NCBI GenBank assembly: GCA_965200265.1
Contig: OZ241357.1
Coordinates: 2,519,816 to 2,583,815 of the forward strand
Source: Alphaproteobacteria bacterium
GTDB lineage: Bacteria > Pseudomonadota > Alphaproteobacteria > UBA2966
Reading direction: 5' to 3'
DNA length: 64,000 bases
Below, piece after piece: positions 8,542 to 55,891 of this stretch. How positions within the stretch are numbered: position 1 is the first letter of the stretch; the number at the start of each line of letters is the position of its first letter. The position numbers and the translations under genes are program-made. The notes beneath the pieces were generated by a model. That model worked only from the letters and a program-made list of their open reading frames with translations, had not been told where the DNA came from and did no database searches.

Positions 8542-9497
8542 GGTTCGGCGCGCGCGCTCCGGGGTCTCGATTCCGGACCCACTGCTTCGAGATCGAACCC
8601 CTCGGCGGCCAGGGACTCCCGGAGCTCGCGCCTTCGGGTGGGCTCCAGCGGCGTCAGCGGCGGGCGCATCGCTTGCCAGCCGGGTTCGCCCGTGATCGTC
8701 GCCATCGCTTCCTTGAGGGCGGCGACGAGAGGAAAGCGGTCGAGCACCCGCCGCACCGCCACGAGCCGCTCCTGCCGGGCGTCCGCGTCGTCGCCGGATC
8801 GCTCATGGGCGCGGAATACGCCGGACGCCATCGGACTGGTCACGTTGGCGGTTGCCGAGATGCAGCCGGGCCCGCCGGCCCGCAGGACCGGCAGCAGATA
8901 TCGCTCCGTTCCCGCGTAGACGCCGAAACCGGGGAAGGCCTCCAGCAGGGACGTCATGTTGCCGAGGTCGCCGGAACTGTCCTTGAGGCCGACGACGACG
9001 TCGGGATAGTCCCGGCGCAGGAGCTCGATGGCGCCCACGGTGATCGGCATGCCGGTCATCGCGGGAAAATGGTACAGGATCACGCGCAGGTCGCCGTCCG
9101 CCACGCGGTCGATGATCCGCGCGAAGGACTCGGCCAGCCCCCGGTCGGTGACGCCCTTGTAGTAGAACGGCGGCAGCATCAGCACCGACCCGATGCCCGC
9201 GGCGCGGACGGCGCGCGTGAGCTCCAGCGTGTCCGGCTCGGCGCACGTCCCGGTTCCCACCATCAACCGGTCCTTCGGCAAGCCGCTCTCCCCCACCGCG
9301 TCGATGATCGACAGGCGCTCGGCGACGCTGAACGAATTGGCCTCGCCCGTCGTCCCCAAGATGCCGAGGCCGTCGCACCCGCGGTCGAGCAACCATCGGA
9401 AATGCGCCAGCATGGCCGGCAGGTCGGGCGCGAGATCCGCCGTCATGGGCGTCAACGCGGCGGCGAGAACGCCGCGCGTGACTCCGGAACCGGTCAT
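8538..9497 (-). CDS. Dihydrodipicolinate synthase/N-acetylneuraminate lyase family protein
   Basis: DapA-family TIM-barrel motifs (GILGTTGEANSFSVAERL, VGTGTC, YHFPAMTG..GLKDSSGD with Schiff-base Lys); internal Met start chosen; stop overlaps the upstream gene start. Confidence 0.8.
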   Translation of the reverse strand: MTGSGVTRGVLAAALTPMTADLAPDLPAMLAHFRWLLDRGCDGLGILGTTGEANSFSVAERLSIIDAVGESGLPKDRLMVGTGTCAEPDTLELTRAVRAAGIGSVLMLPPFYYKGVTDRGLAESFARIIDRVADGDLRVILYHFPAMTGMPITVGAIELLRRDYPDVVVGLKDSSGDLGNMTSLLEAFPGFGVYAGTERYLLPVLRAGGPGCISATANVTSPMASGVFRAHERSGDDADARQERLVAVRRVLDRFPLVAALKEAMATITGEPGWQAMRPPLTPLEPTRRRELRESLAAEGFDLEAVGPESRPRSARAEP

Positions 9498-10758: not shown

Positions 10759-11619
10759 TCACTCCCCGACTTGCAGAATCACGCCGCTGTTGCGGGCCAA
10801 TCCGAAGAAGGCCAGGAACGCCGCCATGCCGACCCCGAGGTAGGCGACGTTCAGCAGGACCGCGGTCATCATCAGGTCGGACCGGAAGGCGCCGTCGACG
10901 AGGATCGCCCGCATCCCCTCGAATACGTGACTGGCGGGCAGGAAGAACGCGACGGACTGAAGCCAGCCGGGCAGCACCGCGATGGGATAGTAGATTCCGC
11001 AGATCGGCGCGATGGCGAAGATCGCCGCCCAGGCCATGCTTTCGGCCCCGAGACCGACCCGCAGCACCAGACCCGAAACCGCGAACCCGATCGCCCAGCC
11101 CATGACGATCAGGTTGAAGAAGAACCCGATCAAGGGAATCCCGAGGGAGTACATGGAGAATCCGAAGAACGTCTGCGCCAGCAGCGACGCCGGAATCAGG
11201 CCGATCAGCGTGCGGATCAGGCTGACCGCCATGAGGCTGACCAGCATTTCGTAGGGTCGCAGGGGGCTGACGAACAGATGCCCGAGGTTGCGCGACCACA
11301 TTTCCTCGAAGAACGACATGGAAACGCCCAGCTGACCCCGGAACAGCACGTCCCAAAGCAGCACGCCGGAGATGAGGACGCCGAAGGCCTGCGCGATGAA
11401 ACTCGAATGTCCGATCAGGAACAGCGTGATGAACCCCCAGAGAACCATCTGCACCGTGGGCCAGTAGGCCATTTCGATGATTCGCGGCCAGGAGCCGCGG
11501 ACCAGAAAGGCGTGACGGAGGATCATGGCGCCGACGCGCCGGGAGGAGAACGGCGGATCGCGGCGGCGCGGCGGCGCGGGGTCCGCACCGCCACCGGCCG
11601 GGGCCGACGCGCCGCTCAT
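10759..11619 (-). CDS. ABC-2-type transporter permease (Wzm/KpsM-like)
   Basis: Six predicted TM segments, ABC-2 family pattern; ATG overlaps the stop of the upstream ATPase gene (ATGA at 11616-11619). Confidence 0.8.
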   Translation of the reverse strand: MSGASAPAGGGADPAPPRRRDPPFSSRRVGAMILRHAFLVRGSWPRIIEMAYWPTVQMVLWGFITLFLIGHSSFIAQAFGVLISGVLLWDVLFRGQLGVSMSFFEEMWSRNLGHLFVSPLRPYEMLVSLMAVSLIRTLIGLIPASLLAQTFFGFSMYSLGIPLIGFFFNLIVMGWAIGFAVSGLVLRVGLGAESMAWAAIFAIAPICGIYYPIAVLPGWLQSVAFFLPASHVFEGMRAILVDGAFRSDLMMTAVLLNVAYLGVGMAAFLAFFGLARNSGVILQVGE

Positions 11620-12377
11620 CGCGCCGCCCTCCGTTCGGCGCCGTCCCGGTCGCGTCCGCGGGCGATGTCCAGGAAGACTTCCTCGAGGTTGGCGCGGCCG
11701 TAGCGGTCGACGAGCTCCGCCGGCGCGCCGCGATCCACGATCCGCCCGGCGCGCATCACGATCGCGTCGTCGCACATGCGCTCCACCTCGCCCATGTTCT
11801 GAGAGGCCAGCAGGATCGTCGCGCCCCTCTCCGTCCGGTAATCCTGGAGATAGCCGCGCACCCAGTCCGCCGTGTCGGGGTCGAGTGACGCCGTGGGCTC
11901 GTCGAGCAGCAACAGTTCGGGCGCGTTGATCAAGGCCTTGGCCAGGGCCACGCGGGTCTTCTGTCCCGCGGAGAGGCCGGCGATCCGCCGATCCATGAAA
12001 TCGCCGAGATCGAAGGCGTCGGCGACCTCGCGCAAGCGTCGCCGGACATCGGAGAGGCCATAGAGCCGGGCATAGACCTGCAGGTTCTCGGCCGCGGTCA
12101 GGCGCTTCGGCAGGTCGACGTAGGGCGAGGAGAAATTCATTCGGGGCAGCACCCGATAGCGATGCCGCAGCATGTCCTCGCCGAACACGGCGACGGACCC
12201 CGCCGTGGGCAGCAAGAGGCCCAGAAGAATGGAGATCGTGGTCGTCTTGCCCGCGCCGTTGCCCCCGAGCAGCGCCGTCGCGCCGCCCGCCGGCACGCTG
12301 AAATTGACGTCGTCGACGGCGACGACGGAGCCGAAACGCTTCCCCAGATTCCCGACTTCGATGACCGGCTCGGACAT
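11616..12377 (-). CDS. ABC transporter ATP-binding protein (Wzt/KpsT-like, short form)
   Basis: Walker A GGNGAGKTT, signature LSAGQKTRVALAKAL, Walker B LLLLDEPTASLD; internal Met start (MSEPVIEVGNLGKRFG). Confidence 0.85.
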   Translation of the reverse strand: MSEPVIEVGNLGKRFGSVVAVDDVNFSVPAGGATALLGGNGAGKTTTISILLGLLLPTAGSVAVFGEDMLRHRYRVLPRMNFSSPYVDLPKRLTAAENLQVYARLYGLSDVRRRLREVADAFDLGDFMDRRIAGLSAGQKTRVALAKALINAPELLLLDEPTASLDPDTADWVRGYLQDYRTERGATILLASQNMGEVERMCDDAIVMRAGRIVDRGAPAELVDRYGRANLEEVFLDIARGRDRDGAERRAAR

Positions 12378-12531
12378 GCGGCCCACTATGGGGTCTGCGC
12401 GCCTCCGTCGCCAGTGGCGCAGGGGCGATTCCCGACCGGACCACGCGACGCTCGTGGACAATGGGACCGGCGACGTCGATCGACGGATCCCTGCCGGATA
12501 CACGTCTCGGCAACCGACTACGACGCCCGAA

Positions 12532-13461
12532 CTAACCGGCACCGCCGGTGCGCGAATGCAGCCTGTAAAACTCACCGCACCGCGCGATGAACTCGGCGTG
12601 CCGGCGCGGAATCGGCAACAGGCTGCGCAGGTAGAGGGCGAGCCAGCGCGCTCGACCGGGCGCGCGACGGCGGCGAGCGAGGCGCCAGACCCGGCTCGCC
12701 GCGCGCCGGCAGGCCAACTGCCTGAGCCGCCACGACAGGTCCCGATGTTCGGACACGAGCCAGCCGAGACCTTTGTTCATGTCCCGCATTATCCCATCCG
12801 TGTCCGTGCTCATCTGTCCAGGCACATGGCGCGGCGCGTATCCGACCGTCGCGTCGACGTGCACGAGCGGCCGTCCCGGCAACATCGCCAGCCGCAGCGC
12901 CAACGTCCAGTCCTGGGCGTGCTCCCATGACTCGTTGCAACCGCCGAGGGTCCGTACCGCGTGGGTCACCGCCATCATCGCCACGGGCCGCCACGAAGGT
13001 CCCCGTATGGTGAACCGAAGCGGGTCGGCGAGCTCCAGGACGGCGGCATCGGAAAGATCGGCACCGAGGTCCCGTGGCGGGGGGGGGGGGTCGTAGAATT
13101 CCCACTTCCCGTAAGCCAGCATTGCCTGGGGATGGGAGAGCAGCGCGTTCCGCAGGGCCTCCGTCGCGCCGTCGGCGAGCAGGTCGTCGGCGTCGCAGAG
13201 CTTGATGAAGGGGTGCCGCGCCTTCGCGATGGCGCGGTTGGTCGCGTGTGCGACACCACGATTCTCCTGTTCGATGATCGTGACGTCGGGCCAGCCCGCG
13301 GTGTGCGCCTTGAGGACGGCCAGCGAGTCGTCCGTCGAGCCGTCGTCGACGAAGACGTACTCGCGCTCGAAGGCGCCGCGCTGCGCGGCAATCCGGTCCA
13401 GAACGTCAGGCAGCCAGGGAGCCTTGTTGAATACGGGCACGACAAAGGACACGCCGGTCAT
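12532..13461 (-). CDS. Family 2 glycosyltransferase
   Basis: VSFVVPVFNKAPWLPDVLDRI...FVDDGSTDDS (GT-A DxD) motifs; contains a run of 12 C on the coding strand (13079-13090) encoding PPPPP. Confidence 0.8.
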   Translation of the reverse strand: MTGVSFVVPVFNKAPWLPDVLDRIAAQRGAFEREYVFVDDGSTDDSLAVLKAHTAGWPDVTIIEQENRGVAHATNRAIAKARHPFIKLCDADDLLADGATEALRNALLSHPQAMLAYGKWEFYDPPPPPRDLGADLSDAAVLELADPLRFTIRGPSWRPVAMMAVTHAVRTLGGCNESWEHAQDWTLALRLAMLPGRPLVHVDATVGYAPRHVPGQMSTDTDGIMRDMNKGLGWLVSEHRDLSWRLRQLACRRAASRVWRLARRRRAPGRARWLALYLRSLLPIPRRHAEFIARCGEFYRLHSRTGGAG

Positions 13462-13499
13462 CTCATCAACCCACGATCTTCATGGCGAGCAGATACGAG

Positions 13500-13811
13500 T
13501 CATCCCGCCGCATAGATGACCTCGGCGGAGTCGAGGATCTCCTTCCGGCGGATGTAGTTCGGACTCCGTTCCACCGACGAGCGCGTCAAAACATCCACAT
13601 GCCTGCCGAACAGCTCCGACAACTCGTCCGCCATGCCGATGAAACGGAAACCCGGCGTCCGGCCGGGCGCGAACTCGACGAGCAGGTCGATGTCGCCGTC
13701 CGGCCCGAAGTCCTCGCGCAGCACCGAACCGAAGATCGCGAGTTTCCTGATGCCGTTCGCCCAGCAGAACGCGGCGAGCCGGTCGGTGGGAATGGACACG
13801 GCCGGATTCAT
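13500..13811 (-). CDS. Nucleotidyltransferase-domain protein (MntA-type minimal NTase)
   Basis: GS...DxD motif FGSVLREDFGPDGDIDLLVEF typical of minimal nucleotidyltransferase antitoxins; no HEPN partner adjacent. Confidence 0.6.
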   Translation of the reverse strand: MNPAVSIPTDRLAAFCWANGIRKLAIFGSVLREDFGPDGDIDLLVEFAPGRTPGFRFIGMADELSELFGRHVDVLTRSSVERSPNYIRRKEILDSAEVIYAAG

Positions 13812-13976
13812 CTCACGCGCTCCCGAACGCCCGGTTCGCGTCGTTGTAGCCGATACCGGGAGGGTCCACAATCGAGGGGGACGATCGTCGTCCGGCGGGC
13901 CGTATCGGGGCGGGAGGCGATTTGCGCGGTCGCCCGGGTCCGCGGACACGGTTTCTCGCCCTCTCCCCGGGTGCTA

Positions 13977-14762
13977 ATGTCTCGCGGCGATGATGCGGTG
14001 CGTGACGATCTCCAGGACTGCATGACGGAACGCCCGGCCCGATCCCCGGCGCGCGTGCCGCCCGGCCGGCGTGTCTACGCGGTCGGAGACGTCCACGGGC
14101 GCGTCGACCTTCTCCGGCGCCTCAACGCCCGGATTCGCGCCGACGCCGACGCCGCCCGCGCCGATTCCCGCGTCGTCGTCTATCTCGGCGACTACGTGGA
14201 CCGCGGCGCGCACAGCCGCGACGTCCTCGACTGCCTGATCGAGGAGCCCATCCCCGGGTTCGAGACCGTCGGCCTCCTCGGCAACCACGAGGCGTTCCTG
14301 CAGGAGTTCCTGGATGATCCGGCGCGCGGCGACATCTGGGTCTACAACGGCGGTGACGCGACGCTGCGCGACTACGGCATCGACCCGGCGGAACCGGAGG
14401 TCCGCGCCGGTGGATGGAAGGGGTTGCGGGACCGGCTCCTCGAAGCCCTGCCCCGACGTCACCTCGACTTCCTGCGCGGCCTTCCCCTGACTCACGTCGA
14501 GGGCGACTACGTCTTCGTTCACGCCGGAATCCGGCCCGGCGTCCCCCTGGAGGAGCAGCAACGGCGCGACCTGCTGTGGATCCGGGAAGGCTTCCTCGAT
14601 TGCGAGGACGACCTCGGCGCGGTGGTCGTGCACGGACATACGCCCGTCAAGGAGATCCAGGTCCGCCCGAACCGCATCGGCATCGACACCGGCGCGTGGA
14701 TGTCGGATACCCTTACCTGCGTCGTCCTCCACGACGGCGAACGCGCGTTCATCCAGACCTGA
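13977..14762 (+). CDS. Ser/Thr protein phosphatase family metallophosphoesterase (PrpA/ApaH-like)
   Basis: GDVHG, GDYVDRG, GNHE, VHAG..HGHT metallophosphatase motifs; start uncertain (alternative Met at 14022). Confidence 0.75.
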   Translation: MSRGDDAVRDDLQDCMTERPARSPARVPPGRRVYAVGDVHGRVDLLRRLNARIRADADAARADSRVVVYLGDYVDRGAHSRDVLDCLIEEPIPGFETVGLLGNHEAFLQEFLDDPARGDIWVYNGGDATLRDYGIDPAEPEVRAGGWKGLRDRLLEALPRRHLDFLRGLPLTHVEGDYVFVHAGIRPGVPLEEQQRRDLLWIREGFLDCEDDLGAVVVHGHTPVKEIQVRPNRIGIDTGAWMSDTLTCVVLHDGERAFIQT

Positions 14763-14782
14763 GCGCCGGACCCGTCGCCAGC

Positions 14783-16273
14783 GTGCCCGACCCTTCCCGC
14801 CTTCTCGAAATTTCGCCGACGCTCGGCGAGGGCCGGGTTCTCGTCGTCGGCGACCTGATGCTGGACCGCTACGTCGCGGGCACGGTCGACCGCGTCTCGC
14901 CGGAAGCGCCGGTCCCCGTCATGCGCGTCGACCGCGAGACGGAAATGCCGGGCGGCGCCGGCAACGTGGCGCGCAACGTCGCGAGCCTGGGCGGGCGGGC
15001 GGCCCTGGTGGGGCTGATCGGCGACGACGCGGCCGGCGCGCGCCTGACGGCACTGCTGGCGGTCGAGGAGGGACTGACGCTCCATCCCGTGGTCTGCCCG
15101 GACGCGCCGACGACGGTGAAGACCCGGTATCTGGCGTCCGGCCAGCAACTCCTTCGCGCCGACGTCGAGGGCGCCGCCGCGCCGCCGCCGGACGTCCTGT
15201 CGCGCGTCGTGGATCAAGCCCTCGCCGAACTGCCGGGAGCGGATGTCGCGGTGCTGTCCGATTACGCCAAGGGCGCGCTGAGCGCCGGGGTCGTCGCGGA
15301 GATCGTCGCCGCGGCAGCGTCCGCCGGCGTGCCGGTGGTCGTCGATCCGAAGAGCCCGGACCTCGCGCGCTACCGGGGGGCGTTCCTGGTGAGCCCCAAC
15401 CGGGACGAGCTGTCCCGGGCCACCGGAACGGCGATCGAGGACGACCGGAGCGCGGCGGCCGCGGCGGGCAAGGCGGTGACGGAAGCCGGCGTCGGCGCCG
15501 TCCTGGTGACGCGCGGCGCCCAGGGCATGACGCTGGTCGTCGCCGGCGAGGAGCCACTGCACCTGCGCACCCGATCGCGGCAGGTCTTCGACGTCTCCGG
15601 TGCCGGCGACACGGCGGTCGCGACCGTCGCCGCGGCCCTCGCCGCCGGACATGGACTCGAGGAGGCCGCGGCCCTCGCCAACGTGTGCGCCGGGATCGTG
15701 GTCGGAAAGGTCGGAACGGCGACGGTGGACGCCGGCGAGCTCGCCGCCGCTCTCCGGGCCGACGCGCCGCCGGACCCGGAGGGGCCGGGAGGCAAGATCG
15801 TGTCGCGGCGCGCGGCGCGCGACCGAATCGCCGGGTGGCGCCGGCGCGACAGGCGCGTGGTGTTCACCAACGGCTGCTTCGACCTCATACATCCGGGACA
15901 CGTTTCCCTCCTCGAGCAGGCCCGCGCGGCCGGCGACGCCCTGATCGTGGGCCTGAACTCGGACGCCTCCGCGCGCCGTCTCAAGGGCGCCGGCCGGCCC
16001 GTCCAGACGGCGGCGGCCCGCGCCTCCGTCCTCGCGGGCCTCTCCGCCGTCGATCTGGTCGTCGAGTTCGGCGAGGACACGCCGCTGTCGCTGATCGAGG
16101 CCATCAGGCCGGACGTCCTCGTCAAGGGCGCCGACTACGCCGAGGAAGACGTCGTCGGCGGCGACCTCGTGAAGTCCTACGGCGGGCGCGTCGTGCTGGC
16201 CGGGCTCGCCGAGGGCCACAGCACCAGCGGCACCATCGGCCGGATCGAGCGGCGCGCCGGGGGCGGCGCGTGA
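14783..16273 (+). CDS. hldE: Bifunctional D-beta-D-heptose 7-phosphate kinase / D-beta-D-heptose 1-phosphate adenylyltransferase
   Basis: N-terminal ribokinase-like domain (VLVVGDLMLDRY...), C-terminal cytidylyltransferase domain (VVFTNGCFDLIHPGHVSLL); GTG start in frame just after the phosphatase stop. Confidence 0.85.
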   Translation: MPDPSRLLEISPTLGEGRVLVVGDLMLDRYVAGTVDRVSPEAPVPVMRVDRETEMPGGAGNVARNVASLGGRAALVGLIGDDAAGARLTALLAVEEGLTLHPVVCPDAPTTVKTRYLASGQQLLRADVEGAAAPPPDVLSRVVDQALAELPGADVAVLSDYAKGALSAGVVAEIVAAAASAGVPVVVDPKSPDLARYRGAFLVSPNRDELSRATGTAIEDDRSAAAAAGKAVTEAGVGAVLVTRGAQGMTLVVAGEEPLHLRTRSRQVFDVSGAGDTAVATVAAALAAGHGLEEAAALANVCAGIVVGKVGTATVDAGELAAALRADAPPDPEGPGGKIVSRRAARDRIAGWRRRDRRVVFTNGCFDLIHPGHVSLLEQARAAGDALIVGLNSDASARRLKGAGRPVQTAAARASVLAGLSAVDLVVEFGEDTPLSLIEAIRPDVLVKGADYAEEDVVGGDLVKSYGGRVVLAGLAEGHSTSGTIGRIERRAGGGA

Positions 16274-30551: not shown

Positions 30552-31499
30552 TTACAGGAAGAGCACGTCCTTCGCGTACATCTCCATCTTCTCGAGCGCT
30601 TCGCTCAGCGTCGGGCTCAGGAAGTTGAAGTTCAGCAGGCCGACGCCCAACTCGCGAAAGTGCTCGACGTCGCCGGCGATCTCCTCCGGCGCGCCCATGA
30701 ACAGCCGCCGTCCGCCGCCGTCGGCGACCGTCCCCGCGACACCGGCCCAGTTGGCCCAGAACGCCAGCGTGATGGTCGCCGGGTCGCGCCCTTTCTCCGC
30801 GGCCATCGCGTGGAGCCGGTCGACGTTGGCCTTGTACCGCTCGCGCGTGTCCATCCGGTTCCCGGGGTTGGCGCCGAGGGGATACCAGCCGTCGCCGAGC
30901 TCGACGACCCGGCGCAGCGCGGGGTCGCTCTCGCCGCCGACGAATATCGGAGGGTGGGGCTTCTGGACCGGCCTGGGCGCGAAGACGACGTCCGAGAAGC
31001 TCACGTAATCGCCCCGCATGGAGGGACTCTCCCGCGTCCACAGCTCCTTGAAGGCGCGGACGTATTCGTTCGTGACCCGGCCACGCTCGGCGTGCGGCGG
31101 CGCGCCGAGAGCCTCGAACTCCTCCTTCATCCAGCCCGCGCCGACGCCGATCGAGAGGCGGCCGCCGGACAGCACGTCGATGGTCGAGAGCATCTTCGCC
31201 GTCAGCACGGCCGGGCGATGGGGGACGACGAGCACGGAGGTCATGAGCCGCGGCTTCGTCGTGACCGCGGCCGCCCAGGTCACGACCGTGAGCTGGTCGA
31301 GACAGTCGCCGGCCCCGCCGCCGGGCATCTCGCCGGTCTCCGAGTACGGATACTCGAAGGCGTAGGCGCGCGGGATGACGAGGTGGTCGGGGACGGTCAG
31401 ATAGTCGTATCCGAGCCGTTCGCCGCACTCGGCCATCGCCCGGACGCCTTCCGGGTTGGCAAGCGGGCCGCGCGTCGGCAAACCGAATCCGAACTGCAT
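30552..31499 (-). CDS. LLM-class (luciferase-like) flavin-dependent oxidoreductase, paralog 1
   Basis: MQFGFGLPTRGPL...DHLVIPR...GGRLSIGVGAGWMKEEFEALGAP...; TIM-barrel LLM family. Confidence 0.8.
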   Translation of the reverse strand: MQFGFGLPTRGPLANPEGVRAMAECGERLGYDYLTVPDHLVIPRAYAFEYPYSETGEMPGGGAGDCLDQLTVVTWAAAVTTKPRLMTSVLVVPHRPAVLTAKMLSTIDVLSGGRLSIGVGAGWMKEEFEALGAPPHAERGRVTNEYVRAFKELWTRESPSMRGDYVSFSDVVFAPRPVQKPHPPIFVGGESDPALRRVVELGDGWYPLGANPGNRMDTRERYKANVDRLHAMAAEKGRDPATITLAFWANWAGVAGTVADGGGRRLFMGAPEEIAGDVEHFRELGVGLLNFNFLSPTLSEALEKMEMYAKDVLFL

Positions 31500-31679
31500 C
31501 GCAATCCTCCTTCAAGCGGTCCGGCGCCACTCTGCCACCGGGTCCGGGAGCGGGGCAAATCGGGGCGGGCGCCGCGTTGATGCGGCTTCCGCAATCGGGT
31601 ATCAAGCCGGGTCACGGCGTGGATGTCGGAAGGCATCGCGTTTCCTCTCGACCGAACCCGACGCGGCGGGGCGGCGGCC

Positions 31680-32954
31680 ATGAAGCTGAAATGCGTGGAG
31701 ATCGAGAACTACCGGGCCATCGAGAAGCTCGACCTGCCGCTCGACCCCGACTTGACGGTGTTCCACGGCGCCAACGGGCACGGCAAGACCAGCGTGCTCA
31801 GCGCCATCGCCGTGGGCCTCGGCAGCATTCCCACGTTGTTGCCGGAAGTCTCCGGTATCGGCTTCCGCAAGACCGACCGGCGCGGGCAGCAGCCCTTGCG
31901 GGTGGCGCTGCACACGCTGGACGGGATCGAATGGGAGCGGCGCATGGCCGGGCAGCGGAAATTGACCCGTCGTCGTCCGTTGCAGGAGGCGCTGGACGCT
32001 ATCGTCGCCGCGGACAGCGAGGGAGCCGCGCCACGCGACCTTCCCATCGTCGCTTTCTACGACACGGATCGCGCGGTGTTCGACGCGTCGCATCGGCGCC
32101 GGAGCTTCAAGACGGAGTTTCCGCGTTACGCGGCGCTGGAGGAGGCGCTCACCCCCCGAACCAACTTCAGTGAGTTCTTCAAGTGGTTCTACGCCTTGGA
32201 GAACGAGGAGGTCCGGGAACAAAAGGAACGGGGGGGGGACTGGGAGTTGAAGGAACTGAAAGCCGTCCGCAAGGCGATCGAACGCATGGTCCCCGGAGTC
32301 TCCGACCCGCAGATCAAATTCCGGCCCGTGCGGTTCGCCGTGTCCGTGAAGTCGGAAGCGGGCAAGACGGAAAAACTCGCGCTCGACCAGCTGAGCGGCG
32401 GCTACCGCATCATGCTGGCGCTCGCCGCCGATCTCGCCCGGCGCATGGCGCAAGGGAACCCGCATCTCGACGACCCGCTCCAGTCGGAAGCGATCGTGCT
32501 GATCGACGAAGTCGACCTGCATCTGCATCCTCACTGGCAACATCGGGTGCTGACCGATTTGACGACGGCCTTCCCGAACACGCAGTTCATCGTCTCCACC
32601 CACAGCCCGCCGGTGCTGACGACAGTTCGTCCAAAGCACATCGTCCGGCTTTACCACGACGACGGGCGCATCGTCGCCGGACAACCGAACGCGCCGACCT
32701 ACGGCGCCGAGGCGGGAAGCGTGCTCGAAGCGATCATGGGCGTGCAGGAACGGCCGGCTGCCGAACACAACGAATTCGTGAAGAAGCTCGAGGAATACAG
32801 GCGTCTCGTCGATGACGGCCGCGGGCGGTCCGAAGAAGCCGTGTCGCTCAGGGGTGAGCTCGAAAGCCTCTCCCCCAGGGATCCGGCACTTGATGCGGCG
32901 GACATGGAAATGGATCGGCAGGAAATTTTCACGCGGTTGGGGAAGGGGTCTTGA
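31680..32954 (+). CDS. ptuA: AAA_21/OLD-type ATPase, Septu PtuA-like
   Basis: Walker A GANGHGKTS, ABC-signature-like LSGGYR, Walker B/D-loop IVLIDEVDLHLHPHWQ; 424 aa; contains a 9-nt G run (32230-32238). Confidence 0.7.
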   Translation: MKLKCVEIENYRAIEKLDLPLDPDLTVFHGANGHGKTSVLSAIAVGLGSIPTLLPEVSGIGFRKTDRRGQQPLRVALHTLDGIEWERRMAGQRKLTRRRPLQEALDAIVAADSEGAAPRDLPIVAFYDTDRAVFDASHRRRSFKTEFPRYAALEEALTPRTNFSEFFKWFYALENEEVREQKERGGDWELKELKAVRKAIERMVPGVSDPQIKFRPVRFAVSVKSEAGKTEKLALDQLSGGYRIMLALAADLARRMAQGNPHLDDPLQSEAIVLIDEVDLHLHPHWQHRVLTDLTTAFPNTQFIVSTHSPPVLTTVRPKHIVRLYHDDGRIVAGQPNAPTYGAEAGSVLEAIMGVQERPAAEHNEFVKKLEEYRRLVDDGRGRSEEAVSLRGELESLSPRDPALDAADMEMDRQEIFTRLGKGS

Positions 32955-33694
32955 AACGGATACGGTCACTCCAAGGCCCCGTACCCGGCCTTGCCGACTA
33001 CAGGAAACAAGCCAGCGCGCAGGCGAATTGGAAGGGATATCGCAAGCACCGCGCAGGCAAGAAGCGGTATCAGAGCCTCATCGAAAGCCTTGTCGGCCTT
33101 CAGCACGGACTCTGCGGTTACTGCGAGATCGATCTTGTCGAGGGCGACCGTCAGGTCGAGCACGTCATCTCGAGAAACAAGGCGCCGGACCGCGATCTCG
33201 ATGCCGAGAACATGATCGCTTGTTGCAGAGGCGGCGCATCGGACGACTCCGACGTTCGAGGCGACCGGGAGCGGTTTTCGCCGCCGGATGCGAGTTGTGG
33301 CCACGCGATGGGCAATACCGACGACCCGGAATTCGTCGATCCGAGGACGGTGCCCGACCTGCCGTCGTTGACGCGTGTCCGTCCGGACGGCCAGATCGAG
33401 GCCGATACGGGTGCCTGCGCGGACGCCGGATGGTCCGCCGACAGCGTGGAGAAGACCATCCGGATCCTGGGTTTGAACGTCCAACGACTACAAACGACTC
33501 GGAGGGATTATTGGGACAATCTCTCGAGCAAGATGCCCGCCTATCACGGCAACCCGAATGCAATGGAAGAGTGGGCGCGTAGTCGGCTTTTGCCGAAGAA
33601 CGGCACCCTGCCGAAGTTCTTTACCGTCAGCCGTTCGTATTTCGGGCTGTTGGGCGAGGAGATTCTGGCGGAAGAACCCCGCGAATGGATTTGA
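32951..33694 (+). CDS. ptuB: HNH endonuclease, Septu PtuB-like (retron-type CxYCE HNH)
   Basis: LCGYCEIDL...RQVEHVISRNKAP HNH core; TTG start overlapping the ptuA stop (TTGA), so the start is uncertain. Confidence 0.65.
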   Translation: MKRIRSLQGPVPGLADYRKQASAQANWKGYRKHRAGKKRYQSLIESLVGLQHGLCGYCEIDLVEGDRQVEHVISRNKAPDRDLDAENMIACCRGGASDDSDVRGDRERFSPPDASCGHAMGNTDDPEFVDPRTVPDLPSLTRVRPDGQIEADTGACADAGWSADSVEKTIRILGLNVQRLQTTRRDYWDNLSSKMPAYHGNPNAMEEWARSRLLPKNGTLPKFFTVSRSYFGLLGEEILAEEPREWI

Positions 33695-33769
33695 ACCGAC
33701 GTCCGACGGCACCCTGAGAGTGCAGGCAGGCGGCGGTCTCCGCTCGGCGGGCCGTGGTAGCCTCCGCGG

Positions 33770-34192
33770 ATGTTCGAGGAGCGGCAGCGGGCGTTTCTGA
33801 ACGGCCGGCGCGTCGGGCGGCTGGCGACGGCGGACGCGGCCGGGCGGCCCCACGTGGTGCCGGCGTGCTTTGCGCTCGGCGCGCGCGGCGTCTACATTAC
33901 GATCGACGAGAAGCCGAAAAGGAGGGCGGGGCAGCCCCTGAAGCGTATCCGCAACATCCTCGAAAACCCTTCGGTGGCGCTGGTCGTCGATCGCTACGAC
34001 GAGGACTGGAGCCGCCTCGGCTGGGTGATGGTGAGGGGTTCGGCGGAAATTCTGGAGAACGGCGACGAGCACGACCGGGCGCAGGCGCTGCTGCGGGACC
34101 GCTACCCCCAGTATCGGCGAATGGCCCTGGAGGACCTTCCCGTCATCGCCATCCGCGCCGAGCGCGTGACGAGCTGGGGGAATCTCGACTGA
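33770..34192 (+). CDS. PPOX-class (pyridoxamine 5'-phosphate oxidase-like) FMN/F420-binding split-barrel protein
   Basis: LNGRRVGRLATADAAGRPHVVPACFAL...VALVVDRYDEDWSRLGWVMVRGSAEIL pattern of the TIGR03618-like PPOX class. Confidence 0.7.
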   Translation: MFEERQRAFLNGRRVGRLATADAAGRPHVVPACFALGARGVYITIDEKPKRRAGQPLKRIRNILENPSVALVVDRYDEDWSRLGWVMVRGSAEILENGDEHDRAQALLRDRYPQYRRMALEDLPVIAIRAERVTSWGNLD

Positions 34193-34230
34193 CCACGCCG
34201 GAACCCGCGGAGAACGGCAGGCATGATAGG

Positions 34231-35355
34231 ATGGACATGACGGAAGAACTGAAAATGTGGACGGTCGGGAACGGTGGCGAGGCCGCTCCGGTGAAGCAAG
34301 TGAGGCACATCGAAACCGAAAACCTGCTAGAAAAGACGCTCGTCAAGAACCCGGACATGCTGATACCGGGGTTGAAACTCGTGGGGCGACAGACGCCGAC
34401 CGACGGAGGCTGGCTCGACCTGCTGGGCGTGGACCGGGATGGCCGGCTCGTCGTATTCGAATTGAAACGCGGCAAGCTCACGCGGGAGGCGGTCACCCAG
34501 ATCATCGACTACGCCTCGGACCTCAATGCCATGAACGACAAACAACTGGCGGAGCACATCACCCAACGGTCGGGCCGCGACGGCATAGAGAAGATCGAGA
34601 ATTTCGACGACTGGTACGAAGACTGGCGCGCCCAACATATCGAGGAACCCGACGAGGCGCCTCAGTTACGGCCCGTGAAGATGATGCTTGTCGGTCTCGG
34701 CGCCGATGCCCGAGCTACCCGGATGGTGGACTTCCTGGCGCGGGGCGTGGACATATCGCTTCTGACGTTCCACGGCTACGAACATGAAGGCAAAACCTTT
34801 CTCGCCAGGCAAGTACAGGCGGAGCCGGACCTGACCGAAGAGTTCCGCGGCGGGAAGGAGAGCCGCGAAGAGCGCCGTCGAAAGCGCCGTCGCGCCGTTG
34901 AGGAATTGGCCGAAAATCATGGTGTAAGCGATATATTCAACGAGGCGGTCAGAAGATTCTTGGACTTGGATAGTCGTTATACGCCGCACACTCGTAGGGA
35001 CGGGTATGCTTTCTACGCGGCGCGGTCGTTGACGCTCTCCGGACACGATACAAAATTCAACAGCCCACTGTCGTTGAGGATTACCCGGAACGGAGAGATG
35101 CGCGTGACCTTCTTCCCGGTCTCGGTACATCTCTGCAAGCAGAAATTCCGGGAGGCGACACAATCCAATCCATCCCTGTTCAAATGCGAGCCTCCACCCA
35201 ATGCCCCTCGCACGAACGACGTCCCGGAGCAGTGGTACTGCGTCCTGGATCGGTCGGGATGGGATGAGCACAAGGAAAGACTGTTCGAGCTCGCCAAGGA
35301 CGTCTCCACGGCATGGAACAAGACCGAGCAAGAGGCCGGATCACGGGCGGCGTAA
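34231..35355 (+). CDS. NucS/DUF91-like PD-(D/E)xK nuclease-domain protein with uncharacterised C-terminal region
   Basis: GGWLDLLGVDRDGRLVVFELKRGKLTREAVTQIIDYASDL matches the D...(E)LK core of NucS/EndoMS-type nucleases; remaining about 250 aa unassigned. Confidence 0.65.
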   Translation: MDMTEELKMWTVGNGGEAAPVKQVRHIETENLLEKTLVKNPDMLIPGLKLVGRQTPTDGGWLDLLGVDRDGRLVVFELKRGKLTREAVTQIIDYASDLNAMNDKQLAEHITQRSGRDGIEKIENFDDWYEDWRAQHIEEPDEAPQLRPVKMMLVGLGADARATRMVDFLARGVDISLLTFHGYEHEGKTFLARQVQAEPDLTEEFRGGKESREERRRKRRRAVEELAENHGVSDIFNEAVRRFLDLDSRYTPHTRRDGYAFYAARSLTLSGHDTKFNSPLSLRITRNGEMRVTFFPVSVHLCKQKFREATQSNPSLFKCEPPPNAPRTNDVPEQWYCVLDRSGWDEHKERLFELAKDVSTAWNKTEQEAGSRAA

Positions 35356-35457: not shown

Positions 35458-36030
35458 TTACGGCTTTCCGGTTTCCGGCGCCGGGCGCCGCAGGGCCATC
35501 AGGATGCCGGCGAGATGGCCGATCACAGGGACCTCGCCGTTGGCCGCGGCCCGCGCCAGCTCGTCGCGGGTCATGAGCACGGTCTCGATCTCTTCAAGGT
35601 TCGTCGCCGGGTCGGGTTCCCGCTTCCAGACGCCGCCCGACGCCAGGAAGAAGTGCTCCTCGCCGCAGCGCTGGTTGTTGTTGCGGCAGAAGGCGCCGAG
35701 AGGCCGCCAGTCCCGGCACTCGTACCCCGTCTCCTCGAGCAGCTCCCGCCGGGCGGCGGCGAGCGGCTCTTCGCCCGGATCGACGATCCCGCCGGGAAGG
35801 GTGAGCGAGATCCGCTCCGGTCCATGCTTGTACTGCCGCTGACAGATGAACCGGCCGTCCTCCGCCGTCGCGGCCACCCACGCCTGATCGGGGAGATCGA
35901 CCCGGTAGTAGGGCTCGTATCGCCGGCCGCCGGGAAGCTCGACCGCGTGGGCGGACACCGAGAGCCGCCGGGGGACGACGAATATCTCCCGCGATCCCAG
36001 CAACTTCCACGGTCGGAGATCGCGGGTCAC
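35458..36030 (-). CDS. NUDIX hydrolase (ADP-ribose pyrophosphatase-like)
   Basis: Nudix box GGIVDPGEEPLAAARRELLEETG; GTG start overlaps the stop of LLM paralog 2 (GTGA). Confidence 0.7.
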   Translation of the reverse strand: MTRDLRPWKLLGSREIFVVPRRLSVSAHAVELPGGRRYEPYYRVDLPDQAWVAATAEDGRFICQRQYKHGPERISLTLPGGIVDPGEEPLAAARRELLEETGYECRDWRPLGAFCRNNNQRCGEEHFFLASGGVWKREPDPATNLEEIETVLMTRDELARAAANGEVPVIGHLAGILMALRRPAPETGKP

Positions 36031-37016
36031 GGGCCGGTCCCGGAACCGATGAACTCCGCCGCGTATGCCTCCATCCCTTCGAGCGTCTCCCCGATGGTTT
36101 CCCGCTCGAAGTTGACGATGACGGAGTCGACGCCGATCTCCTCCATGGCCGCCATGTCGTCCTTCATGTGCCGGGCGCTGCCGCTCAGGAGGCGCCGGTC
36201 TCCACCGGGAAACGGGGCGTCGACTTCCGCCGGCCGCAGCGGCTCGCCCGGTTCCGTCCCCCACCACAGCGTGAACCACGTGACCCGGAGCGAGGCGGGA
36301 TCCCGGCCGGCGTCCTCCGCCAGCCCGTGGAGCCTGTCCACATACGTCCGCAACCGCTCCAGCGTGTCGAGGGGGACCCTGGCGTTGTGGGCCATGGGGA
36401 TCCAGCCGTCACCCAGCGTCGCGGCGCGGCGCATGGCCGGGGGGCTCTCGCCGCCCACCAGGATGGGCGGGCGCGGTTTCCGAACCGGCTTCGGCTCGAA
36501 GATGATGTCGGCGAAATCGACGTAATCGCCGTGGAACTCCGGGTCGTCGTTCGTCCACAGCTCCTTGAACGCCTCGATGTATTCGTTGGCGACCCTGCCG
36601 CGCTCGGCATGGGGCGGCGCGCCCAGGGCCTCGAACTCCTCCTTCATCCATCCCGCCCCGCACCCCACGGAAAGACGGCCGCCGGAAAGGTAGTCAAGGC
36701 TCGCCAGCGCCTTGGCCGTCGGGACCGGCGAACGGTGCGGCAGCACCAGCACGGACGTGAGCAGGCCGACGGACCGCGTCCGGGCGGCGACGAACGCCAG
36801 CGCCGTCAGCTGATCGACGAAATCCCCGAAACGTCCGGGCAGCCAGTCGCCGTCCCTGGTATAGGGATAGTCCGAGACCCGGCTTCGCGGCACCACCAGA
36901 TGGTCCGTCATGGACAGGAAATCGAAGCCGAGCGCCTCGCCCTTCCGGGCCAGGGCCGACATGTTCTCCGGCGCGCTCAGCGGTCCCCGCGTGGGGACGT
37001 AGAACCCGATCTCCAT
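36027..37016 (-). CDS. LLM-class flavin-dependent oxidoreductase, paralog 2
   Basis: MEIGFYVPTRGPL...GGRLSVGCGAGWMKEEFEALGAPPHAERG; paralogous to 30552-31499. Confidence 0.8.
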   Translation of the reverse strand: MEIGFYVPTRGPLSAPENMSALARKGEALGFDFLSMTDHLVVPRSRVSDYPYTRDGDWLPGRFGDFVDQLTALAFVAARTRSVGLLTSVLVLPHRSPVPTAKALASLDYLSGGRLSVGCGAGWMKEEFEALGAPPHAERGRVANEYIEAFKELWTNDDPEFHGDYVDFADIIFEPKPVRKPRPPILVGGESPPAMRRAATLGDGWIPMAHNARVPLDTLERLRTYVDRLHGLAEDAGRDPASLRVTWFTLWWGTEPGEPLRPAEVDAPFPGGDRRLLSGSARHMKDDMAAMEEIGVDSVIVNFERETIGETLEGMEAYAAEFIGSGTGP

Positions 37017-37040: not shown

Positions 37041-38057
37041 TCACGCGCCGCGACCCGCTCGACCGTCCGCCGCCGGGGCCGAGAGCGGGCCGACGTCGCG
37101 GGCGAACGCCTCCATCCCGTCCATGGTCTCGGAAAGGCCGGGACGCTCGAAGTTCAGCACGAGCGCCTTCACGCCGAGCCCTTCCAGCGCCGCGACGTCG
37201 GCCGCCATCTGCTCCGCCGAGCCCGTCATCAGACGACGGTTGCCATCGGTCGCCGGACCGTCCGTTCCCAGCGGCGGCAAGGGATCGCCGGGTTCCGATC
37301 CCCACCGCATGATGAAGAAGGCGCGGTCGACGTCGTCGATGCTCCGCCCCGTCTCCCCGGCGAGACGCGCCAGACCGTCCAGGGCCGCCTCGTACCTGTC
37401 ACGGGTGTCGAGAGGGTAGTTCGGGTTGTGCGCGATGGGAAGCCAGCCATCGCCGAGCCGGACGACGCGGCGCAGGGCGGGCCTGCTCTCGCCCCCGATC
37501 CAGACCGGCGGGCCCGGCCGCTGCACGGGACGCGGGAGGAATGCGATGTCGGCGAAGTCCGCGTAATCGCCGTGGAATTCCGGGTCCTCGGCGCTCCACA
37601 GCTCCCTGAAGACGCGGATGTACTCGTCGGTGACCTTGCCGCGCTCCCCGTGGGGAGGCGCGCCGATCGCCTCGAACTCCTCCTTGCACCAGCCGGCGCC
37701 GACGCCGACGGTGAGACGACCGCGGGACAGGACGTCGATCGTCGACAGCATCTTCGCCGCGAGCACCGGCGGCCGATGCGGCGCGACCATGACCGAAGTC
37801 AGGAGGCGGGCCGAACCGGTCCGCCCGGCGAGATAGGCGAGAACCGTCAACTGGTCGCAGAAATCCCCGAATCGCCCCGCGGGCCAGTCGCCCTCGTCGG
37901 TATAGGGGTATCTGGAGTCCACGCCGCGCGGCACGACGACGTGATCGGTCACCGCGATGTAGCCGTACCCCAGCTCCTCGCCCCTGGCAGCCAGCGCCGT
38001 CATGTGCTCGGGCGTGCCGAGGGGGCCTCGTGTCGGAAGGTAGAAGCCGAATTCCAT
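37041..38057 (-). CDS. LLM-class flavin-dependent oxidoreductase, paralog 3
   Basis: MEFGFYLPTRGPL...RGRLTVGVGAGWCKEEFEAIGAPPHGERG; internal Met start chosen. Confidence 0.8.
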   Translation of the reverse strand: MEFGFYLPTRGPLGTPEHMTALAARGEELGYGYIAVTDHVVVPRGVDSRYPYTDEGDWPAGRFGDFCDQLTVLAYLAGRTGSARLLTSVMVAPHRPPVLAAKMLSTIDVLSRGRLTVGVGAGWCKEEFEAIGAPPHGERGKVTDEYIRVFRELWSAEDPEFHGDYADFADIAFLPRPVQRPGPPVWIGGESRPALRRVVRLGDGWLPIAHNPNYPLDTRDRYEAALDGLARLAGETGRSIDDVDRAFFIMRWGSEPGDPLPPLGTDGPATDGNRRLMTGSAEQMAADVAALEGLGVKALVLNFERPGLSETMDGMEAFARDVGPLSAPAADGRAGRGA

Positions 38058-38197
38058 GTCGTCGTCCCTCGAACCGCAGGCATTCCGGATCGTTCGCACC
38101 CGCATTTATAGCGGATGGCTCCGCGCGTGTGACCAGCCGGTCGGCAAAGGACGGCGAAGCGGTTCCGGCCGAACGGGAACCGCTCTAGATTGGGCGC

Positions 38198-53683: not shown

Positions 53684-54002
53684 CCCTTCGGGTCATCTTC
53701 GGCGCCAAGGAGGATTTCTTCATCAAGGCTGTCATGGCCTACACCAAATTTGGCCTTGAATAGCAAAGCCAATTCGTGTCTACTTGTGACGCATTCGGAT
53801 TCACATGAGGGTCGAGAACACGCATAGGGGGTAATTCGTGCTTCCGGTTGCCCAAGGCTACACACCTAACCGTGGTTTCCTTGCCGATTTCCCTGATGTA
53901 GGCTTTTTCTCGATGTCCCCACGTTCGATGAGAAGAAACGAGCCGTTGATCCCTCTCTTGCTCAACGCTACACTACACTGACCCGTACCGAAGGAACCAC
54001 CC

Positions 54003-54431
54003 ATGAACCCGAGAAAAATCTTTATCGCATGCGTCACCACAGCCATATTGACCGGCTGTGCATCACTAGATAAACTAAATTTGTCACTCGGTCCATTTCC
54101 GACTGATTACAAAACAACCATCAAGAAAGAGGTCTTGCGTGGCTTCTTTGATCCTTATTCGATTCGAGATGCTTCGATATCTGCGCCTATACGGTCCCGC
54201 ATAGTCGAACCTAAAGGGTGGCTTGTTTGCCTTGAGGTAAACGCCAAGAACAGGATGGGTGGTTACACTGGACTATCCCGCACCGCCTACTATATCCGGC
54301 TTGGCGGGCAGGTAATCGGAATCGAGGACGGTGATTCCGGAAACTGGACTTGCTCCGGTCAAACAATCAGTGGGATGAGGACGTTGACTTATTCGTTGTG
54401 GCCAGAGCTTGAACAGCTTCAACATCAATAG
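54003..54431 (+). CDS. Lipoprotein, function unknown (low-GC islet)
   Basis: Signal peptide + lipobox (ILTGCAS); lies in a distinctly AT-richer segment. Confidence 0.55.
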   Translation: MNPRKIFIACVTTAILTGCASLDKLNLSLGPFPTDYKTTIKKEVLRGFFDPYSIRDASISAPIRSRIVEPKGWLVCLEVNAKNRMGGYTGLSRTAYYIRLGGQVIGIEDGDSGNWTCSGQTISGMRTLTYSLWPELEQLQHQ

Positions 54432-54457
54432 CATCCACTCCCGGTCCCTTCTACCGC

Positions 54458-54730
54458 TCATACGTGGAATTTGTAACGAATTGTCAGAGATGCTCCTCTT
54501 TTCCCTTTCGGTTGGTGAATGATGTCATCTCTATCCTCTTTGTACTCCTGCCACATGACATTCGCACATGAGGGCATGTTCGCAGCGCGCTCTCCACGTT
54601 TGGGTGGGTAACCACCAAGTTTCCGGTAAAGCTCACCAGCATTTATCTCAGCATGTGGGCGACCCTGCTGTTGGGCGCGTTTGATCTGTGCTCGAAGTTC
54701 TTCTCGAAACTCGTCTGTGGTTGGCGGCAT
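54458..54730 (-). CDS. Hypothetical small basic protein (low-GC islet)
   Basis: 90 aa, Lys/Arg-rich, non-repetitive composition (...EINAGELYRKLGGYPPKRGERAANMPSCANVMWQEY...); no family assigned. Confidence 0.4.
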   Translation of the reverse strand: MPPTTDEFREELRAQIKRAQQQGRPHAEINAGELYRKLGGYPPKRGERAANMPSCANVMWQEYKEDRDDIIHQPKGKRGASLTIRYKFHV

Positions 54731-55043
54731 CAGGAATTCACCTTACAAGACCTGGGGATACGATGTCGGCAGTTGGTTTCAGTGCGGCTTCCGTACCGAT
54801 CCGGTGTTCAGGCCCCTCGTTCGACTCTTGGTCCAGTAACCTTGAAGCACCTTGTGCCGAATGCTCCCTGTCATGGTTGCAGAGTGGCGGGCCGCGGCGC
54901 ATTTGTCAAACACTGCCTTACAGATGCCGGGAACATCGCCGCGCGCCGGACCTCCGGTCTCGCGAGGACCCCGCCGCTGATGACCAGCCCGGTGTCTTCC
55001 GCGGCCGAACACCCCTATCGTATGAAATCAGCTCTTCCTTCTG

Positions 55044-55442
55044 TTGTCAGATGCTGATAACCTTGTGGCGGTAACCACACCCGACCGCGATCCCGGGCTG
55101 GACACCCTGCTGGACCTTCACGGCCAGACCCTGTTCGTGGATGAGGTCGGACATTGGGTGAAGTTTGTCGTGCTGCGAACCGATGTGACTCCGGAACGTC
55201 CGCACGGACTCAGCTATTCGCTGACACTGCACGCACCGGACGGCACCAGGTTGGTCGGGTTCGACAACGCGCACCCGGTGAGGGAGCGGCGAGGTCCGGG
55301 AATGCGGAAACGCATGAAGAGCGACCACAAGCACCGGATTCGGACAGTCCGGCCCTATGATTACGAAGACGCCGCCACGCTTCTTGAGGATTTCTGGACC
55401 GAGGTAGATCGGATTCTGAAGGAAGGAGAGTCGATTCCATGA
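55044..55442 (+). CDS. TumE-like toxin-family protein (DUF6516-like)
   Basis: FDNAHP...H.H pattern (GFDNAHPVRERRGPGMRKRMKSDHKHRIR) and 4-nt overlap with a downstream HTH gene, as in TumE/TumA-type pairs. Confidence 0.55.
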   Translation: MSDADNLVAVTTPDRDPGLDTLLDLHGQTLFVDEVGHWVKFVVLRTDVTPERPHGLSYSLTLHAPDGTRLVGFDNAHPVRERRGPGMRKRMKSDHKHRIRTVRPYDYEDAATLLEDFWTEVDRILKEGESIP

Positions 55443-55819
55443 GGACGTTGAAGATCGGTATTGCCGACTATGATCGGATGAAGGCGCGCACCATGGAGAT
55501 CGCGCACGGCGAACGCAAGCCGGCCAAGGGCGAGCCGATGGTATGGTTCACGTCGGTCGAGAGCTTCGCGAAGGTGCTCTCCCGGCGCAATCAGGAACTT
55601 CTGGCGTTGATCGCCCGCGAGAAGCCGCGGTCGCTCACCGAGCTGGCGGAACTCGCGGGGCGGAACAAGTCGAACCTGTCGCGCACCCTGAAGACGATGT
55701 CGCGGTATGGCCTCGTGGAATTGACGGAAGGACGACGTGGCATGTTGGTCCCGCGGGTCCGGTACGACCGGGTGAGGCTGGACGTTTCGTTGACGCCGCT
55801 CCCGCACCAAGTCGCGTGA
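55439..55819 (+). CDS. HTH DNA-binding protein (HVO_A0114/MarR-like), putative antitoxin partner
   Basis: Winged-helix segment ELLALIAREKPRSLTELAELAGRNKSNLSRTLKTMSRYGLVEL; ATGA overlap with the preceding gene. Confidence 0.55.
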   Translation: MRTLKIGIADYDRMKARTMEIAHGERKPAKGEPMVWFTSVESFAKVLSRRNQELLALIAREKPRSLTELAELAGRNKSNLSRTLKTMSRYGLVELTEGRRGMLVPRVRYDRVRLDVSLTPLPHQVA

Positions 55820-55891
55820 AGCGGCCGGAATCGACGGGCGCGGACGGTCCGGAGAGACCGCCATGCCCCGGCGACCCGTATGTGAACGCCC

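Follow-up and report, generated by a model that had tools for sequence, protein, structure and literature searches.

The question raised by this locus is whether two overlapping genes of an uncultured alphaproteobacterium, at positions 31680-33694 of contig stretch OZ241357.1, constitute a self-sufficient anti-phage system of the Septu type, the effector part of a retron, or a pair of genes with no role in defence. In what follows, the window means the whole stretch of DNA that was analysed, 64 kb long, taken from a host genome of ~69% GC, and relatives are designated by L numbers. Exact-sequence look-ups of the two encoded proteins located no contig; the genomic context was therefore drawn from homologous loci in these relatives. 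Our analysis points to the first answer. We put the probability at roughly 90% that positions 31578-33727 hold a standalone Septu cassette (type I) for anti-phage defence, consisting of its own leader, the ATPase gene ptuA and the HNH nuclease gene ptuB, and acting by a mechanism that is here carried over from the Escherichia coli systems. It is an ordinary Septu, a known kind of system that tools of the PADLOC type would call automatically, which makes its identification routine. What stands out is only that very different versions of the cassette occupy this chromosomal spot in close relatives.

The first gene, ptuA (31680-32954, plus strand), starts with ATG and encodes a Septu ABC-type ATPase of 424 amino acids, as indicated by PADLOC, Pfam and PDB matches. 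The second gene, ptuB (32951-33694, plus strand), starts with TTG and encodes a Septu HNH (beta-beta-alpha-Me) nuclease of 247 amino acids with a cysteine-rich putative zinc site; it is identified by PADLOC, NCBIfam and PDB matches. As in the operons of type I Septu systems, the two genes are adjacent, lie on the same strand and overlap. Read directly from the sequence, the tetranucleotide TTGA at 32951-32954 (plus strand) places the TTG start of ptuB over the TGA stop of ptuA. An NTGA overlap of this kind (TTGA or GTGA) is also present in L082, L084, L090, L001 and L089, that is, in six loci including the window.

PtuA matches the PADLOC PtuA1 profiles with E-values from 4.5e-114 to 1e-99, the best one being PDLC00311 at 4.5e-114. 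The alignment to another PtuA1 profile, PDLC00278, runs essentially end to end (protein residues 1-418 against profile positions 1-432 of 436, E 2e-104). In Pfam the protein matches the generic ABC-ATPase families AAA_15, AAA_21, SMC_N and AAA_23. Among PDB sequences, the 12 significant matches are PtuA chains of the E. coli Septu and of the retrons Ec78 and Ec83 (3e-44 to 2e-36), and short local segments match OLD-family proteins (1.7e-8) and AriA (1.7e-6). All motifs of the ATPase are in place: the Walker A motif G30-ANGHGKT-S38 with K36, the signature LSGG at residues 238-241, the Walker B/D-loop IVLIDEVDLHLHP at 272-284 with D276/E277 as the Walker B residues, and the H-loop STHS at 306-309 with H308.

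PtuB matches the PADLOC PtuB1 profile PDLC00349 over nearly its whole length (protein residues 1-243 against profile positions 1-257 of 260, E 1.3e-50). It also passes the NCBIfam family TIGR02646, "retron system putative HNH endonuclease", at 66.6 bits against a cut-off of 52.15. Among PDB sequences the best match is 8ee7_C (1.9e-10), a PtuB from the standalone Septu of E. coli; the VEH His and the ENM Asn are aligned. The HNH core is represented by LCGYCE at residues 54-59 and VEHVISRN at 69-76. Among 41 homologues, C55, C58, E59, E70, N87, C92, C116 and C156 are invariant, and 40 of the 41 retain H71. In Septu EcB88, which was studied with K43, D316, H75 and N91 mutants, mutation of H75 or N91 abolishes immunity (PMC13096335), and the 16-residue spacing between H71 and N87 equals the spacing between these two essential residues. 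The invariant cysteine cluster is probably a zinc site. The AlphaFold model of PtuB has a mean pLDDT of 71 and a C-terminal helical domain of high confidence. When this model is compared with PDB folds, 9 of the 10 matches listed are to PtuB chains, and these nine comprise every match with E<1; they include Ec83 PtuB (1.5e-5) and E. coli Septu 8eea_G (2.5e-5, TM scores 0.55/0.58).

Is the pair standalone or linked to a retron? Retron-linked "type II" systems reportedly account for ~7.6% of Septu systems (PMC12640716). The reverse transcriptase motif Y[AVCIL]DD is absent from all six frames of the entire window. An Rfam search of 29-38 kb at relaxed E-values (E<=1) returned nothing relevant, only one chance microRNA match, and the neighbouring genes are all assigned to other, metabolic families. 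Retron PtuA uses an N-terminal extension (PMC12819146). Residue 4 of the 424-residue PtuA pairs with residue 68 of a 551-residue retron-type PtuA, so the extension is missing. Furthermore, the NCBIfam equivalogs for the retron Ec78 proteins score far below their cut-offs (NF041760, PtuA, 271 against 500 bits; NF041761, PtuB, 82 against 150 bits). Since there is no reverse transcriptase, no non-coding RNA and no N-terminal extension, and since the equivalog cut-offs are missed, the pair is assigned to type I.

These results agree with the original prediction, made from the sequence alone, in most respects. It had proposed a two-gene Septu on the basis of the Walker A, LSGG and Walker B/D-loop motifs of the first gene, and the full-length PtuA1 and PtuB1 matches, which are much stronger than chance would give, together with the PDB sequence and fold matches, uphold that identity, as they do the motifs themselves. 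The TTG start overlapping the stop of ptuA and the HNH core with its catalytic residues (H71 and N87) were likewise read correctly, and so was the absence of an Ec78-type retron. The ATPase type was said to be common to PtuA, GajA and AriA; the AAA_15/AAA_21 core is indeed shared, with weak PDB matches. A comparison with PtuA/PtuB, AriA/AriB and GajA profiles had been proposed as a check, with an SMC/RecF-like assignment of the first gene named as a refuting outcome, and the PtuA/PtuB assignment held. Only the reading of CxYCE as a form seen in retron-associated PtuB needs to be amended. The form does occur in Ec83 PtuB, but it is invariant in the present standalone family as well and is no marker of a link to retrons.

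Comparison with the characterised systems places the pair closest in layout to the E. coli Septu PtuAB (8EE4/8EE7/8EEA; EcB88). Both are two-gene systems in which an ABC ATPase precedes an HNH nuclease, and PtuA is of similar size (424 here and 465 amino acids in E. coli) without a retron-type N-terminal extension. On the other hand, the identity between the PtuB proteins is only ~24% in the fold alignment, and Ser, Ala or Gly stands in the E. coli protein where C58, C91/C92 and C116 align, whereas the PtuB of the window has the cluster C55, C58, C92, C116 and C156. The effectors of type I-A retrons (PtuAB of Ec78/Eco7 and Ec83/Eco4, also called Septu type II) share a homologous PtuA ATPase core and the PtuB fold. 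They also supply the top PDB sequence matches of PtuA, and Ec83 PtuB has LCxYCEIDL too. They differ in that the pair in the window lacks a reverse transcriptase, a non-coding RNA and an msDNA (multicopy single-stranded DNA) partner. Retron type I-A PtuA is a protein of ~550 amino acids with an N-terminal extension and msDNA-binding flaps; the PtuA of the window is ~125 amino acids shorter, does not have this form, and matches the ATPase_I-A profile in three fragments.

The boundaries of the cassette can be defined by comparison with L002, the closest reference genome (an uncultured "Alphaproteobacteria bacterium" metagenome-assembled genome), whose flank proteins are 82-94% identical to those of the window. 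Homology between the window and L002 stops at ~31577; it starts again at 33728, which is 42 bp upstream of the start codon (ATG) of PPOX. Therefore, the cassette is ~2.15 kb long and brings its own leader of ~100 bp. This leader or promoter region (31578-31679, plus strand), 5' of ptuA, occupies the cassette side of the sole non-coding space, the 180-bp spacer between LLM1 and ptuA (31500-31679). It is common to the four occupied loci (window, L082, L001 and L084), absent from the empty locus L002, and better conserved across these four loci than the coding sequence of ptuA. By our own reading the leader holds TTGATG-17 nt-TATCAA (TTGAnG-17-TATCAA across the loci), a putative promoter that fails the strict sigma-70 rule of the tool used; the sigma-70 and terminator scan called no promoter 5' of ptuA and no terminator after ptuB. 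A hairpin is predicted at ~31622-31649, with one compensatory change in the four sequences and no real covariation support. The right junction of the cassette is at 33695-33727 (plus strand). The cassette carries no signature of mobility in the features examined. A repeat search found no direct or inverted repeats around it that would mark a mobile element, and the window contains no tRNA genes. A scan of the IMG/VR viral contigs with PtuA found no relative, so nothing ties the cassette to phages, and the plasmid homologues of PtuA are distant (at most 34% identical).

In the window the cassette lies between LLM1 (30552-31499, minus strand) and the gene for a PPOX-class F420-dependent oxidoreductase (33770-34192, plus strand; TIGR03668 at 169.8 bits against a cut-off of 119). 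The PPOX gene is followed by a NucS-like nuclease gene (34222-35355, plus strand) and by the block of NUDIX (35458-36030), LLM2 (36027-37016) and LLM3 (37041-38105), all three on the minus strand. In L002 the order is LLM3-LLM2-NUDIX, an AIG2/GGCT-like gene, PPOX, and LLM1 divergent from PPOX, and the site contains no ptuA, ptuB or NucS-like gene. Seven more distant genomes (L004, L012, L017, L018, L019, L023 and L035) likewise have LLM1 next to PPOX in divergent orientation, with 17-87 bp between them, which brings the number of genomes with this pair and without ptuAB to eight. The GC content at third codon positions (GC3) is 0.83 in ptuA, 0.73 in ptuB and 0.74 in the NucS-like gene, compared with 0.89 in PPOX and 0.87-0.95 in the flanking genes. 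The adjacency in eight genomes without ptuAB, together with its GC3, indicates that PPOX is native and not part of a defence module. It also indicates that ptuAB was inserted into the short promoter region between LLM1 and PPOX, splitting the pair. Thus ptuAB is accessory, as seen from the empty site in L002, the GC3 below that of the flanks and the presence of homologues in defence islands, and ptuAB and the NucS-like gene occupy two distinct accessory slots that flank the core gene PPOX.

The layout is neither recent nor a private insertion, being common to four related loci (window, L082, L084 and L001). The order LLM1, ptuA-ptuB-PPOX-NucS-like, NUDIX-LLM2-LLM3 is found again in the 3.67-Mb genome L084 and in L082, which belongs to the same species judging from flank identity. 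In L084 the flank proteins are 88-96% identical to those of the window, PtuA 75%, PtuB 67%, PPOX 86% and the NucS-like protein 65%. In L082 the corresponding values are 97-99.7% for the flanks, 77% for PtuA, ~52% for PtuB, 97% for PPOX and 99.7% for the NucS-like protein. The 3.52-Mb genome L001, whose flanks are 91-96% identical, has a ptuA of 80% identity at the same site; its PPOX is truncated by the second copy of an insertion sequence (IS) element, and downstream synteny is lost. Outside this lineage, PtuA homologues 70-75% identical are found in L089 and L090 (1-17000), in dense defence islands of unrelated genomes. There ptuA is flanked by DUF499/DUF7680 and DUF1156/SNF2-helicase genes of a larger multi-gene system, and the islands also carry GmrSD, an AAA_21/DUF3696 ATPase and a Vsr/Dcm pair. 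The comparison of loci shows that the cassette entered the short divergent LLM1-PPOX promoter region in an ancestor of the lineage and then kept its position, while diverging or being exchanged at a far higher rate than the DNA around it.

These comparisons also modify what had first been said about the surroundings. The pair was described, together with PPOX and the NucS-like gene, as a small inserted defence islet sitting exactly between LLM1 and the NUDIX-LLM2-LLM3 block. The flanks are as described, except that the left edge of the block is 35458, the 3' end of NUDIX, and not 36030. An accessory ptuAB is borne out by the empty locus, but PPOX is native, the NucS-like gene sits in its own slot and the insertion is not recent. 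The anticipated contrast in composition is present for ptuA, ptuB and the NucS-like gene (GC3 0.73-0.83) and does not extend to PPOX. Conserved synteny with the LLM genes across distant relatives had been named as an argument against a mobile islet; such synteny was found within the lineage, in the four loci, and not beyond it.

How different the versions of the cassette can be is seen from the nucleotide identity between the window and L082, measured in 100-nt sliding windows. Up to ~31577 the identity is 95-100%, mostly 97-100%. It falls to 83-92% across most of ptuA's first two thirds, with a dip to 62% in one 82-nt window that contains an indel, and to 47-69% over ~32730-33607, which covers the 3' end of ptuA and nearly all of ptuB. 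From ~33800 it is back to at least 97%. The cassette is therefore a unit that is hypervariable or has been exchanged, while the chromosome around it is nearly identical. Residues 346-424 of PtuA form two classes, and these track the class of PtuB (compare 32715-33694 of the window with the 7830-8845 region of L082). In one class, the PtuA tail and PtuB are 53% and 52% identical to those of the window in L082, and 43% and 55% in L090. In the other, the values are 81% and 67-69% in L084, and 84% in L001, where PtuB survives in two pieces of 70% and 78% identity. In L089 the tail is 77% identical and only the first 31 codons of ptuB are left. This co-variation agrees with the published contact between the two proteins, in which PtuB is held between two C-terminal extensions of PtuA (PMC12819146), and the pattern of sequence classes suggests that the PtuA tail is exchanged jointly with PtuB, the two forming one module.

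Several other explanations of the gene pair may be considered. It could be the effector pair of a type I-A retron (Septu type II) whose reverse transcriptase and non-coding RNA lie elsewhere or were missed. The proteins do match the PADLOC retron profiles (ATPase_I-A at 1.2e-86, HNH_I-A at 2.4e-28) and obtain appreciable scores with the retron-Ec78 families of NCBIfam; the resemblance of PtuA to retron-type chains and the CxYCE form of PtuB point the same way. Yet these PADLOC matches are fragmented and weaker than those to PtuA1 and PtuB1, the NCBIfam scores are those that fall widely short, the only non-coding space is the 180-bp spacer, and the neighbours are metabolic. In addition, L082, L084, L001, L089 and L090 also have no reverse transcriptase beside ptuA. 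Combined with the short PtuA, the missing YxDD motif and the empty Rfam search, these observations largely refute the idea, and we leave it next to no weight. The ABC ATPase core and the weak similarity to OLD and AriA would also allow another family with the same ATPase type, namely Gabija GajA, an OLD nuclease or PARIS AriAB. This has a negligible chance of being correct, as the Pfam search found no Toprim domain in PtuA or PtuB, the second gene encodes an HNH protein rather than a helicase (GajB) or a Toprim/DUF4435 protein (AriB), and the PADLOC families listed, 25 for each gene, are all PtuA/PtuB or retron I-A profiles.

A further explanation removes the genes from defence altogether and takes them as a housekeeping repair ATPase of the SMC/RecF kind with an associated HNH nuclease. 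The SMC_N and AAA_23 matches, weak N-terminal matches to RecF, RecN and Rad50 in NCBIfam, and the synteny of the locus in four related loci speak for it. The RecF/Rad50 matches, however, span only a Walker A segment of ~45 residues and score 20-40 bits against cut-offs from 170 to more than 1000; moreover, the closest reference genome lacks the genes at this site, their sequence is hypervariable within a species, two relatives carry them in decayed form, and close homologues lie in defence islands. A repair role is accordingly very improbable. Finally, ptuAB and the NucS-like nuclease might be one composite, lineage-specific defence locus of three genes. They occur together in the window, L082 and L084, and further contigs appear to carry homologues of both; both are missing in L002, both are hypervariable compared with near-identical flanks, and both have a low GC3. 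But the native PPOX stands between them and stays in the empty locus. Outside the lineage the NucS-like gene is found without ptuAB (L087 and L088) and ptuAB without the NucS-like gene (L089 and L090), and the two vary independently, the NucS-like protein of L082 being 99.7% identical while its PtuA is 77% identical. Their co-occurrence is explained by the shared ancestry of the locus, and we regard the three-gene composite as unlikely. Our first impression, that ptuAB and the NucS-like gene move jointly as one cassette, was dropped for the same reason, the conserved synteny of the lineage.

If the standalone Septu assignment is followed, the mode of action may be sketched by homology with the E. 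coli systems. PtuA would oligomerise and hold PtuB through its C-terminal helical tail, and ATP binding would keep the nuclease silent. Upon phage infection, PtuAB may be activated or released by a protein of the phage, by falling ATP, or by both. PtuB could then cut nucleic acid, so that phage replication would stop and the growth of the infected cell would pay the cost. According to two reports, EcSeptu forms a 6:2 complex of PtuA and PtuB, ATP inhibits its nuclease, and its activity is plasmid nicking or DNA cleavage (PMC12640716, PMC12819146). A tail fibre protein has been reported as a Septu trigger (PMC12640716, PMC12819146). Septu EcB88 cleaves tRNA-Tyr within its variable loop and causes a growth arrest typical of abortive infection (PMC13096335).

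Certain observations weigh against the assignment or against the transfer of this mechanism. The nuclease target varies among the characterised PtuAB systems, and no target is predicted here. The E. coli proteins that lend the mechanism are only ~20-34% identical. The signature of PtuA reads LSGGYR, with a Tyr at the position occupied by Gln in Ec78 PtuA and by Leu in the E. coli Septu, and its ATPase behaviour is not predictable for this reason. PtuB of the window has no match to Pfam HNH, and the divergent PtuB of L082 stays just below the threshold of this family (20.3 bits against a cut-off of 21.4, residues 52-92). In the AlphaFold model the HNH region (residues 50-130) has a low pLDDT of ~50-60. 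H118, tried as the third HNH residue, aligns with a His of the E. coli protein and was rejected, as it is a His in only 15 of the 41 homologues, so that no residue is assigned to the third HNH position. In L001 (11275-13420), an rve-family IS element (transposase at 11790-12821) interrupts ptuB behind codon 139, and in L089 ptuB is reduced to its first 31 codons (9278-9370) after an intact ptuA, 75% identical to that of the window. A ptuB split in one relative and shortened in another implies that the system is dispensable and could be silent.

The value of the locus is mainly comparative and modest. It adds a Septu from an uncultured, high-GC alphaproteobacterial lineage, offers a clean empty site and a fixed insertion point that splits a conserved LLM-PPOX pair, and documents the within-species replacement or sharp divergence of a cassette with clear boundaries. 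The natural chimeras represented by the window and L082 are the sole mildly useful by-product, for studies of pairing specificity. A more far-reaching proposal would be that the Septu cassette and the NucS-like (PDC-S11-like) nuclease form one coupled lineage-specific defence locus, in which recombination would swap a specificity module made up of the PtuA tail and PtuB. We give this only a small chance of being right. If it were true, the alleles of the window and L082 would be ready-made chimeras for mapping PtuA-PtuB pairing and the choice of target or trigger.

The NucS-like gene deserves a description of its own. It encodes a PD-(D/E)xK nuclease with a Pfam NucS_C match at residues 33-103 and a C-terminal domain of unknown fold (about residues 215-377, ~160 amino acids), for which no PDB fold match was found. 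Its AlphaFold model has a pLDDT of 82, and among PDB folds only NucS/EndoMS matches, over ~160 residues. D66, E80 and K82 are invariant in 34 homologues. It resembles PDC-S11 and NucS (EndoMS) in the N-terminal NucS_C-type PD-(D/E)xK domain with its invariant D-E-x-K. In PADLOC the best PDC-S11 profile, PDLC04916, matches at 6e-32, but residues 6-217 align only to the first 201 of its 358 positions, and PDC-S11 is itself a candidate system. Elsewhere the homologues are single genes, lying between toxin-antitoxin pairs and IS fragments in L087 and among housekeeping genes in L088. In L085 the protein is 81% identical, compared with 97-98% for PPOX, NUDIX and LLM2, so it is also hypervariable within the species. 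It can reasonably be taken as a candidate defence nuclease that acts independently as a single gene, in a separate slot.

This slot, between PPOX and NUDIX, is taken in L002 by the AIG2/GGCT-like gene (8998-9414). L002 also contains ~4 kb of extra DNA (10950-14997) between LLM1 and an isochorismatase gene. Its open reading frame (ORF) translations, read by eye, indicate a putative regulator of the MerR/CueR type, a membrane protein and a cytochrome c-like CxxCH protein; no defence genes were recognisable in this reading, and no family search was made. The GGCT-like gene and the extra 4 kb suggest that the neighbourhood has several variable slots.

At some distance from the Septu cassette, the window contains a low-GC islet with small ORFs at 53700-55900, where GC is 0.53 at 54-55 kb compared with ~0.69 elsewhere. 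It includes a gene for a TumE-like toxin (55044-55442, plus strand; PF20126 at 2.9e-8) and a gene for an HVO_A0114/TumA-like helix-turn-helix protein (55439-55819, plus strand; PF25212 at 9e-22), which overlap by 4 nt. The two genes (55044-55819) are a probable toxin-antitoxin pair of foreign origin.

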